Below are positions 9,001 through 49,036 of a DNA stretch of 64,000 nt, one piece after another (the first letter of the stretch is position 1; each line of letters begins with the position of its first letter). The stretch is taken from NCBI GenBank assembly GCA_963664435.2, contig CAXXKM010000003.1, forward strand, positions 32,001 through 96,000, in the 5' to 3' direction. A program made the position numbers. The DNA is from Longimicrobiales bacterium. Its GTDB lineage: Bacteria > Gemmatimonadota > Gemmatimonadetes > Longimicrobiales > Gaopeijiaceae.

Positions 9001-12000
9001 GGAGCCCGCGGTCGCGTGGGGATTGAAGCGACCGCCGAAAACACTGATTCTTCCGTGTTGAAGTGATGAGACGGGGCGTGGCGCAGCCCGGTAGCGCGCC
9101 TGCTTTGGGAGCAGGAGGTCGCCGGTTCGAATCCGGCCGCCCCGATTGGAGTTACGTGATTTGGGGGGTTTGATGTTCGCTAATTATGTCCGCTATTTGG
9201 ACGTGGAGCCACCCCCCCGGTACTCCTCGATGGCTTTTCTGAGCCGGTCCTCGTCGGGGCGCTGATAGCACTGGAGGACCGTCTCGGCGGTCTTCCAGCC
9301 GCCGAGGTCGCAGAGCACCTTCAGCGGCAGGTCCATCAGGTCGGAGGCGAATTTCCGCCTCAGCGAGTGCCAGCCGCGGCCACGCTTGGGTTCCAGCTCC
9401 GCAAGCGTCTCGGCCTTCTTCCACCAGTCCCGCGCCAGCGAGCGGCTCACGCACGCGAAGGGATCCTTCGGTGCGGTCAGCAGGGGCGCGTCCCCAATCC
9501 CGGGGTTGTGCCTCCGCGCTGCCTCCAAGGCGGCGAGCGCCTTGGAGGTGACCGGCGTCCGGTGCTCGTAACCGGTCTTCTCGTGCTCTCCCCGCCACCG
9601 GATGGTCCGGCCATCGAGGTCGATGTCGGCCCATCGAAGCTGCCGAATGGCACCGATTCGGTGCCCGGTCTCGTGGGCGAGCACCAAGGCCACTTGGAAC
9701 CGCCAGTCCACCTGGGCGGACACTGCGAGCAACGCTTCGTACTCTGTCTGGGTGAGCACCACCCGTCTCGGATTCTTCTCCTTTGGCAGCTTGAGGCCCC
9801 GGAGCGGGTTGGATTCGAGGAGGAGCCGTCCTTCCGCGTCCCTTGACTTCGCGGCCCAGTTAAGGATCGCGAGTAGCAGCCTCAGATCGTATTCGATCGT
9901 CCGTTCGGACACGGGTCTGCGGCTACCGCCGGCCTTTCCCACGCGCCGCGCCCGGATGAAGCGGTCCCAATCGCGTTGCGAAAGGGTCTCGGCCTTCCGG
10001 TGCCTCCCGAAGAACCGAAGGAACCTCCTCATCATGGCCCGGTCGTGGTTCTGCGACCGCCCGCTCTTCGTGGGGGTGACCTCTTCACCGTAGATTTCAA
10101 ACAGCGTTTCCAAGGTGAGCGGCTCGGACTCGGCTTCCGCCGTGTCCGTGGTCACGGGCTCGGCGAGTCCGGCGGCGATCTTGTCCGCCTGCCGCTTGGC
10201 CCGGTTCCAGTTACGGTGCTTCAGCGACCGGGTGAGCCTGCGCCCGTTCTCGCGCCACTCGACCTGGATGATACCGGTTCTGGGATCGGTAAAGACCCGG
10301 ACCCGGTTCCGGCCCCATTCGCCGGCGCTGTACGAGCGCCGACTTCGTTTCGTGCGTGCCATCATTCGATTCCTCTCGTGATGGACCGCACGATCTGCGC
10401 GTCCGAAACTTCGCTGAGCGGTGTTGCTCGCGCGAGATCCAGCCCTGGCCGCAGCCATCAGCGGCTCGGACCCTGATCGCGGTCCGGTCCCGGGCGGCGC
10501 ATCAGATACGGAGGCCGCGCGGTCTCGCGACGGTGGATGTCCCGGAATATTCGGCCAAGCGTGTCGCCAGCGCGTCGAGCCGCTCGATTTGCATCAGCAA
10601 GGCTTCGTACTCCGCGCTCTGCCGCTCGACGTGCTGCCGCAAGGCTTCGATCTCTCCGCCTTGCCGCTCGACGTGCCCTTGCAAGGCTTCGACCTGCTCG
10701 GAGTGCCGCCGCTGTTCCGTTTCGTACTGCGCGGACAGCCTCCGCAAGGCCCTCGTCAACTGCTCCTCTAACGCGGTCATAAACCTCCTTTACTCGTTCG
10801 ACAGCTTCAACGCCGGAAGGTGCCCGTCCACCCACCAGGGCGGATCGGCCAGCACCCCGTCCGGCACCACCACGAACCGCTCGCCCTCGATCTCGTGGAA
10901 CACGAGCCCCCAGGTGTCCTCCTCCAGCTGGGCCAGCGTCCGCCGGGCGTCCTCGATGTCCCGGTTCAGTTCGGCGCGGGTCACGATCCGGTCCTGAATG
11001 CTCCCCGCCAACCAGCGCATCGTCGCCCAGCTTCCGCCGAAGAAACCGATCCAAAGGCTCAGGCCGACGATCAGCGGCCGTTGCCACGCCTTGACCAGCA
11101 ACTCGCGCATCTTGCCGGTCGCCTCCTCCGTATCGCGCTCGATGGTACGCAGCGCGCTCCTCGCGACGCGCCGCGAGTGCTCGGCGAGCCTTTCGAGCTC
11201 GTTCGCGGTCAACTCCTCGATCTCCCTGCGCTCGCTCTCCAGCCGCATTCGCAGCCGTTCGGTCAAATCGTTCGCGTTGGAAATCAACTCCGTACAGTTC
11301 TCCTTTCAGTCGCCACCGGTCTCCGGTTTCGGGGTCCAGCGCGGTGATGTAGTCCATGCCCTGGCGCGGCACTTCAAGGCCCGCCTCCCGCAGCGCGGCG
11401 ACAACATCGCGGCGGTCTTTGACCGCACCGTGCTCGACACGCTGGAGCAGGTAGTCCCGGATCAGGTCGCGGGGGGACGATTCGAGCCGTAGTCCGGCCC
11501 GCAGCCGGGTCGCCTCGATGTAGGCGCGGTGGCCGGGGTGTTGCACTCTGGCCCGCTCCGGGTCGTCGGGTCGGCTCCAGCCGTGCTCGTGGTTGAAGGC
11601 GTCTCGGAGCGGATCGAACGTCCGCTGCCAACCCGGAGGCGCGATGTTGAGGCTTCGGCCGGTCTCCAGGTCGCACCGAGCGGCGAGGACATGGACGTGA
11701 GCGCCTCCGCCCTCCTCACGGTGCAGGACGGCTGCCCAGGCATAGCGGTCGGGCTCCAGCCCCGCCCAAGCCGTCTTCTCGAACTCGTCGAGCACAGCCT
11801 CGATCTGCTCGTCGGTGGGGTGGTCGTCCGGTGCCCAGGCGATTACGCCGGAGGTGTACCTGTGCTCGAAGTCGAGCGAGTCGGCCACCGAAGCCACCAT
11901 GTCCGGGTTCCCGCGCAGCACCTCGACGCCTTCGCGAGGCTTCCCGGTGGCGTCCCGCTCCCCGAGGAGGTAGCCTGCCGCATTGCCGGCCGAGCCGGTC

Positions 12001-48000: not shown

Positions 48001-49036
48001 AAGGCTCGCCACATCGTCCGCGAGGTCCACCCGGAGATCTGCTTTTGGGCGCTCGCAGGACGCAGCCCGTTGAGAAACGGCAAGAAGACGGGCGGTGGCT
48101 TTCAAGAGAGGTACGCGTTGCTGGAGGGTTGCCGCCCATCCGTCGGTGAGGACTTCGCCCGGATTCGAACCGGATTCCGATCATGGGACGTGTCCGACGA
48201 CGACATATTGGACGCGATGGCTGCGGCCATCACAGCCTCGACCGATCCGGTGGCGCTCAAGACTCTACCGGAACACCCGACCATGGACTCGTGCGGTCTT
48301 CCGATGGAAATGGTGTACGTGGCGGACCGGCATCCGCACGTGCGCGAATCGGATGAGTGAAGCACGTCCAAATGCCCTCCATTTGGCCCGGTTTTCCGGC
48401 CTTTTCGGACCGGCAGACCCCGGCACACCCCAACGGCAAGAAGCGCAGATCGTGCAGTCCCAGTTAGACTTACGTGATCTTATGCCGTGATTCGCGTCCC
48501 GATTTGATCGCTTTGGGAGCAGGAGGTCGCCGGTTCGAATCCGGCCGCCCCGATTATCGCGATTCGGGAAATCCGAAAATCCGATTCCCTGGCAGTCCCG
48601 GGACGCACTCCCCGGCCATTCGAGCGGCTCCTCGGTGCTCCTGCTCATCCGCCTGCCGGACAGGGCGGCGTTGACATCGGCTGGCACGGGCCTGTAACAT
48701 TGGGACGATTTTGAGCAGTTGGACGTCGCGGCGCCGGATGTTCCGGGTCTCGGCGGCCACCAAACAGACCGCGGGTGAGCGCGGGCAAGGAGCGCGGGAT
48801 GCGTACCACCGGTACGGTGAAGTGGTTCAACGATGCGAAGGGCTTTGGCTTCATTACGCCAGAGGGCAGTGATCGGGACTGCTTCGTACACCACTCGGCC
48901 ATCCAGGTCGATGGGTATCGTTCGTTAGCCGAAGGTGAGCGGGTCGAGTTCGACATCGTCCAGGGGCAGAAGGGCCCCGCGGCGGAGAACGTCGTCAAGC
49001 TCTAGGGCCCCCGGGTCCTTTCCCCAAGAAGCGCCC

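Follow-up and report, generated by a model that had tools for sequence, protein, structure and literature searches.

Integration of bacteriophage lambda severs the sib element, the promoter pI lies in xis, and the crossover overlap comprises 7 bp. In ICEclc, the promoter Pcirc is located upstream of int. The genomic islands described here resemble lambda in having xis 5′ of int, int facing the attachment site, and a predicted promoter for int alone (PMC5300877). In lambda, int is also controlled by an element beyond int, named sib (PMC5300877), as is predicted for the islands. Integrase expression also depends on the integration state in ICEclc, where Pint is weak (PMC5812530). A further likeness concerns 186 Apl, ICEMlSym RdfS and KplE1 TorI: these, too, are reported to be wHTH RDFs that come with a feature common to att and promoter.

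The genome-wide survey's note had claimed that a single family of 28 integrase genes, together with a T element sharing a 16-mer with their leaders, bounds more than 20 islands in the 4.5-Mb genome of a Longimicrobiales bacterium, and this claim was borne out. The 16-mer gave 40 exact matches and, as reported, 69 matches at ≤1 mismatch in the whole genome, while at the same tolerance both the reversed control and a complemented control gave none. Within the window, the 64-kb stretch analysed here, four copies compare with 0.10 expected. By rule, the copies were assigned to 27 integrase leaders, the number stated earlier, and to 41 T elements instead of 40; four degenerate T elements were added by eye, giving 45. 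A tblastn search with the tRNA-Pro integrase of the window retrieved 32 integrase segments (65–100% identical), and all 28 integrase starts were recovered, several of them belonging to truncated or frameshifted genes. The existence of orphan T elements was also correct (23 of 45 have no matched integrase end). Same-strand runs of such orphans, spaced by 2–7 kb, are found at C3 622951-632594 and C3 1185314-1199875. Outside this genome, 90 of 301 genomes from the phylum contain relatives of the integrase (E≤1e-30), and a T-specific pattern is present in 34 of 151 genomes of the family (control: 0); close relatives belong to Longimicrobiales, Ca. Palauibacter and Gemmatimonadota MAGs. Scans of viral collections gave one weak locus each, so that no natural attP circle was found there, and among metagenome loci with 59 leaders essentially none had both island ends inside 10 kb.

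When the T elements and the 3′ ends of the integrase genes were aligned by the motifs conserved in them, a classical att layout emerged. Each int stop codon is followed by two 9-bp repeats spaced by 13–14 bp, by an AT-rich motif and, at a fixed offset, by a 7-mer; the T element likewise has two copies of the 9-bp repeat together with this AT-rich motif, and again a 7-mer at a fixed offset. For 22 of 26 integrase 3′ ends an identical 7-mer was found on a T element of the facing strand, compared to 24 of 1092 non-neighbouring pairs. The nearest T element was the partner in 19 of 23 cases, and three more integrase ends matched a T element farther away, across nested elements. This pairing delimits islands of 4.1–50 kb and puts the exact ends, which the survey had considered proven for four to six islands only, on a broader basis. 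The 7-mer differs between elements yet is retained by element copies at new sites, which points to a homology-dependent crossover. An attP-like junction of int end, core and T, derived from a tandem array, is present at C3 543-880 (714-880; L141).

The integrase is a tyrosine recombinase (matches to PF00589 and phrog_1), and the catalytic residues R-K-H-R-H/W-Y are invariant in the alignment of 24 relatives (A1); a PDB sequence search with Int gave no match. The arm-site and IHF layout of lambda served as template for labelling the arms. Two repeats per arm were counted in 22 elements, and by analogy we regard them as putative Int-binding sites; Int gave no arm-binding Pfam match. The AT-rich motif common to both arms loosely fits the IHF consensus, and its label as an IHF site is equally tentative. 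Judged by this ordinary layout, the T element is the attR arm of a lambda-like island. That the islands are real lambda-type integrative elements, with a xis-int module facing the attachment site, we regard as practically certain. Other identities were rejected. Tn916-type coupling sequences do not agree with identical island ends and with copies at new sites that keep the same 7-mer. In KplE1 the int promoter overlaps attL, whereas here the int 3′ end abuts att and the predicted promoter lies 1.2 kb inside. The 16-mer itself is excluded as an arm-type integrase site, since the arm repeats represent a different motif and vary independently of it. Of the roles that the survey had left open for the copy in T, this one is therefore lost, while an RNA acting on the leader hairpin stands as an option. 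Rfam at gathering score, applied to seven loci with T elements and leaders, returned tRNAs and one ALIL only.

The window contains two nested islands (Table 1). Island A (9104-48518) is inserted in the anticodon loop of tRNA-Pro, and the 46-bp direct repeat reported for this tRNA was found at both ends. It is a mobilisable element with a relaxase and a MobC-like gene. Island B (27469-40494) resides within island A, in an IS1595 transposase gene. IS1595, island B and a methylase/YhcG block have come to lie between hmaA and hmaB and interrupt the Hma defence operon (20797-47485).

Table 1. Positions of the features of islands A and B within the window.
Feature	Position	Strand	Remarks
tRNA-Pro(TGG)	9072..9145	+	target of island A
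attL identity block	9102..9147	+	46 bp; 7-bp overlap 9104-9110 = anticodon loop
P′ arm of island A (integrase side)	9173..9194	-	two arm-type-like repeats; putative binding sites
Integrase A	9193..10362	-	389 aa, tyrosine recombinase
Leader 16-mer A	10383..10398	-	xis-tail remnant, 5′ arm of int-AUG hairpin, predicted antisense target
Relaxase and MobC-like gene	10458..12354	-	relaxase 10458-12080; MobC-like gene 12016-12354
Defence cargo of island A	13242..26571		GmrSD (+), HerA and SIR2 (-), HmaC and HmaB (-)
IS1595 transposase	26589..27475	+	broken by island B; frame resumes after 40494
T element (attR arm) of island B, nested in island A	27469..27616	-	overlap 27469-27475; 16-mer 27527-27542; stem arms 27499-27508, 27546-27554; arm repeats 27586-27594, 27608-27616
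Cargo of island B	27930..38472		SDR oxidoreductase, OMP barrel, sugar-binding protein, two Ig-domain proteins (one with peptidase M8)
Leader 16-mer B	39194..39209	+	inside xis remnant without HTH
Integrase B	39231..40391	+	386 aa
P′ arm of island B	40404..40494	+	arm repeats 40404-40412, 40418-40426; overlap 40488-40494
HmaA helicase	43988..47485	-	parted from HmaB by nested insertions
T element of island A (attR arm)	48372..48518	+	16-mer 48445-48460; overlap 48512-48518; arm repeats 48372-48380, 48392-48400; stem arms 48433-48441, 48481-48488
attR identity block	48510..48555	+	duplicated tRNA-Pro 3′ half

The defence cargo listed by the survey (GmrSD, SIR2-HerA, HmaABC) is present in the window, the AHSA1 gene is split by an island as described, and relaxase copies number 10, not 9. 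T4SS genes are present in the one ICE that was examined; an unrelated P4-type integrase lies inside the ICE at C1 719470-720690 (L242). All-versus-all clustering of island ORFs yielded integrase shadows and non-conserved frames spanning T only. A universal accessory gene was rejected for want of a conserved ORF, and T as a coding sequence was rejected as its frames and stops vary. Insertion targets comprise tRNAs, AHSA1, IS1595, host palindromes, and the integrase genes and leaders of relatives, in which at least five sites are conserved. Insertions into integrase genes and leaders of relatives account for 16 of 79 integrase-side flanks among the loci, and 68 T flanks include eight clear cases.

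A 129-aa gene overlaps the int start with its stop codon, and the 16-mer upstream of int shares the reading frame of its final codons. Homologues of this gene carry HTH_17 in 18 of 30 cases, and an N-terminal helix is present as in RdfS. Fold comparison of a structure model gave weak MerR-type and Xis matches (best E 0.06, none <0.05), and the single-sequence model of Xis was poor. Taken together, we infer that the gene encodes the excisionase, and we refer to it as xis. It is intact at four places in the genome and mostly deleted elsewhere. In the own lineage, 10 of 75 dereplicated leaders have an intact xis and the others keep the tail only; among distant elements it is intact in 23 of 24. 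Most elements of the family lack xis and probably borrow it. In 13 of 75 leaders the upstream gene, mostly a relaxase gene, ends in a stop codon that shares bases with an ATG in the reading frame of Int; relaxase translation could there replace the coupling to xis. Island A is an example: an in-frame ATG at 10458, overlapping the relaxase stop codon (10458-10460), lies upstream of integrase A and could yield an extended protein.

The survey had also described a leader hairpin that buries both the Shine-Dalgarno sequence and the start codon of int. A hairpin of the xis tail over the int AUG is predicted for 19 of 19 own leaders and for 16 of 24 distant leaders; the Shine-Dalgarno part of the claim did not stand, as most of these sequences fall into the loop (mean pairing 0.33). 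A clear −10 box is present about 7 nt 5′ of the leader motif in the deepest group and suggests that the motif forms the 5′ end of an int-only message. For the own lineage, the int promoter remained below the threshold of a consensus promoter scan.

We compared the leader and attR copies of the motif across distant elements, whose integrases are 32–53% identical. Here attR was set by the nearest tRNA repeat and not by the motif (two were set by hand), and every attR region was given a score for each leader, with ties counted as first. The own attR ranked first for 18 of 20 leaders (19 distant and one own), second for one, and one failed. With held-out leaders it was first in four of five, and the fifth ranked third of 25. 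Missing starts or attR regions removed 9 of 28 matches of the first set and 11 of 16 of the later set from these tests. A copy matching the leader was found in the own attR of 23 of 24 distant elements, 38–53 nt from the crossover or att repeat; the leader of element L128 had no match in its own attR. The motif changes among distant elements and is sometimes unrelated to that of the own lineage. Since the match to the own attR persists even there, leader and attR follow one another and no fixed sequence. At the level of sequence, leader-attR complementarity is a solid, phylum-wide observation. A host regulator box was rejected, as other matches at ≤2 mismatches are scattered as by chance and one host can hold several motif types. 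Our literature search found no account of this family or of antisense pairing between leader and attP; older phage work could hold a precedent.

The hairpin of the T element does not show the same breadth. In the own lineage its outer stem is real, with pairing in 482 of 612 cells versus 106–191 when slid, with compensatory positions, and with wobbles that favour the int-sense strand (52 versus 19); RNAalifold did not recover this stem as a consensus. In distant elements it is weak (mean z −0.6 and −1.0), and the hairpin is thus a lineage feature and not the conserved core. The inner stem fits the plus strand through an invariant partner alone (107 versus 9 wobbles), and for this reason it was not counted as evidence. 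The imperfect hairpin and the many orphans in same-strand runs might suggest that T recombines as a folded single strand, as integron attC does, or that it is a duplicated relic with no function. We give hardly any credence to either: the crossover keeps a constant distance of about 23 bp from the stem and lies outside it, the integron-integrase model TIGR02249 scored 17–18 bits against a cutoff of 265, and co-divergence across integrases of 32–53% identity excludes a relic.

The mismatches between the two copies provide further information. In a duplex of the leader with the T reverse complement, a G/A or T/C difference becomes a G-U pair. All 17 mismatches in the 19 own pairs are G-U-compatible, and 23 distant cores show 13 compatible versus 3 opposite mismatches, 2 transversions and 13 bulge columns, counts that overstate the number of independent events because the elements are related (about four positions in the own lineage and about eight in distant groups). 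Bulges of 1 nt often lie mid-motif in leader and attR copies. No bias was seen in the arm repeats of the same elements (A/G 39 versus G/A 35) or in the T flanks (6.6 versus 7.5 per column). The commonest leader G also stabilises the leader hairpin. Together, these patterns make RNA pairing of some kind between the leader and the attR copy likely.

The motif might instead be a DNA site for Xis or another protein of the element, serving excision in attR and acting as an operator at the int promoter. Lambda Xis binds between arm sites and core, the position that the motif occupies in attR, and its leader copy lies at the predicted transcription start. The RdfS-like N-terminal helix of Xis fits this alternative, as does a weak correlation between motif and Xis similarity (rho 0.34). 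186 Apl and RdfS are reported to bind both att and promoters; for RDFs of this type, DNA binding of low sequence specificity or without a consensus is reported (PMC7498355, PMC11963761). Dual-purpose RDF sites are degenerate, whereas the island motif is nearly exact, and neither an identity over 12–25 nt with mid-motif bulges nor a wobble in one direction, absent from the arm repeats, is expected of a protein site. Moreover, 25 of 58 element pairs with Xis HTHs at least 55% identical share no motif, and between the own ICE and L159, with HTHs 62% identical, motif similarity is at background score. A protein site is unlikely in our view, but it is the strongest of the alternatives.

Given RNA pairing, the arrangement of the excised circle suggests how it could act. 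In attP models (n=21) the antisense copy lies 99–155 nt 3′ of the int stop codon. On the int-sense strand, the interval from stop to antisense lacks a terminator in all 21 own attP models and in 19 of 20 distant ones (tRNA strand: 9 of 20), and no terminator-like site of the kind expected for a sib-like local hairpin was seen. We propose that a promoter within the xis 3′ end would start the int message near the first base of the motif. In the integrated state the hairpin would hold Int untranslated unless ribosomes finishing xis, or a relaxase gene, open it; such translational coupling would supply Int together with Xis and lead to excision. Excision or transfer would then place T behind int in attP, and the int message of the circle would run about 150 nt beyond its stop codon into the reverse complement of T. 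This antisense segment could pair with the 5′ leader (14–25 bp, including G-U pairs and bulges), displace the hairpin and free the AUG, so that Int without Xis would favour integration. Re-integration would remove the antisense opener. By appending a 3′ segment that pairs with the leader, circularisation would let the int RNA report the integration state.

With the pairing modelled, the start region becomes cheaper to open in all 19 own models and in 18 of 19 distant ones. Such decreases (17.7 to 10.2; 15.1 to 9.6 kcal/mol) indicate the direction of the effect, but they follow from the complementarity itself and are not independent support; in L123 the cost did not fall (11.0 to 11.2). Of 19 full-length attP RNAs, 10 took up the long-range duplex in MFE folding and 9 the hairpin, the two being within 3 kcal/mol in 13 of 19, and predictions over 1.4 kb are unreliable. 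In RNA sequencing runs, less than 1/10 of words were shared, which speaks neither for nor against expression. On balance, we lean slightly towards read-through antisense that activates int translation on the circle. The wider notion of positive retroregulation, in which recombination itself builds a translational switch from a leader and a 3′ segment 1.3 kb apart, we rate as evenly balanced. Since the motif is nearly invariant in more than 20 paralogues per cell, the RNA of one excised island might also open others in trans, which seems improbable to us.

Pairing could also have the opposite sign, repressing or destabilising the message as sib does, or the antisense could be transcribed from a separate promoter, located in T or across the attP junction, and not by read-through of int. 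The duplex begins with the first bases predicted for the message and leaves the AUG arm untouched in the deepest group; a TAAGTT-like hexamer precedes the antisense start by about 7 nt. The P′ arm bears this hexamer motif as well, equally oriented, which fits a site for a host bending factor, and no −35 was seen. The short, bulged duplexes and the lower opening cost in 37 of 38 models speak against these variants. We judge both variants to be rather improbable. Still less probable, and by a wide step, is that leader RNA pairs with attR DNA in an R-loop, or that both copies pair as single-stranded DNA during conjugative transfer and so steer recombination. The same strand geometry predicts the same direction of wobble, and many elements do have relaxases, but strand invasion would be needed without a known helper, and such pairing leaves the choice of the AUG-hairpin arm as target without explanation.

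Under the activating read-through model, the islands are like lambda in that an element beyond att follows int in the unintegrated form only, as the attP models show. They differ in its predicted effect: lambda sib lowers int mRNA, whereas the island element is complementary to the int leader and predicted to raise translation. ICEclc is controlled transcriptionally by a 5′ promoter, and the control predicted for the islands is post-transcriptional and acts via the 3′ end. In contrast to HE-PICIs and IMEs on other elements, the islands target integrase genes and leaders of their own family besides tRNAs, IS1595 and host palindromes. They are a new and very prolific branch of an already known element type. 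To provide Int without Xis on arrival and to keep it quiet after integration is a problem solved in few systems; the family holds a candidate solution that is compact, would need no protein and is conserved across a bacterial class, with natural compensatory variants. More than 20 of its att pairs are mapped exactly, and their targets are diverse. The family also shows elements, most of them without xis, invading the integrase genes of each other.

Such invading elements lie within int genes of relatives or exactly in the leader hairpin, and there part promoter and motif from int. Examples in this genome are C2 112663-129336, C1 1571197, C2 1091611 and C2 832127-839141, and at other loci L003, L007, L036, L049, L051, L053, L067 and L073. 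One palindromic target has 10 copies in the genome (C1 121688, C2 315771, C3 891907 and seven more). At C2 315771 it lies inside the 19-bp spacer of a promoter, much as a MerR-type operator does; its left half is rebuilt by the island end. A second palindromic target, probably the site of a host regulator, has about 23 copies, mostly in pairs 24–42 bp apart (C1 72058, C2 148196, C3 225511 and others). Finally, 17 tRNA genes are arrayed within less than 3 kb at C2 689401-692178.
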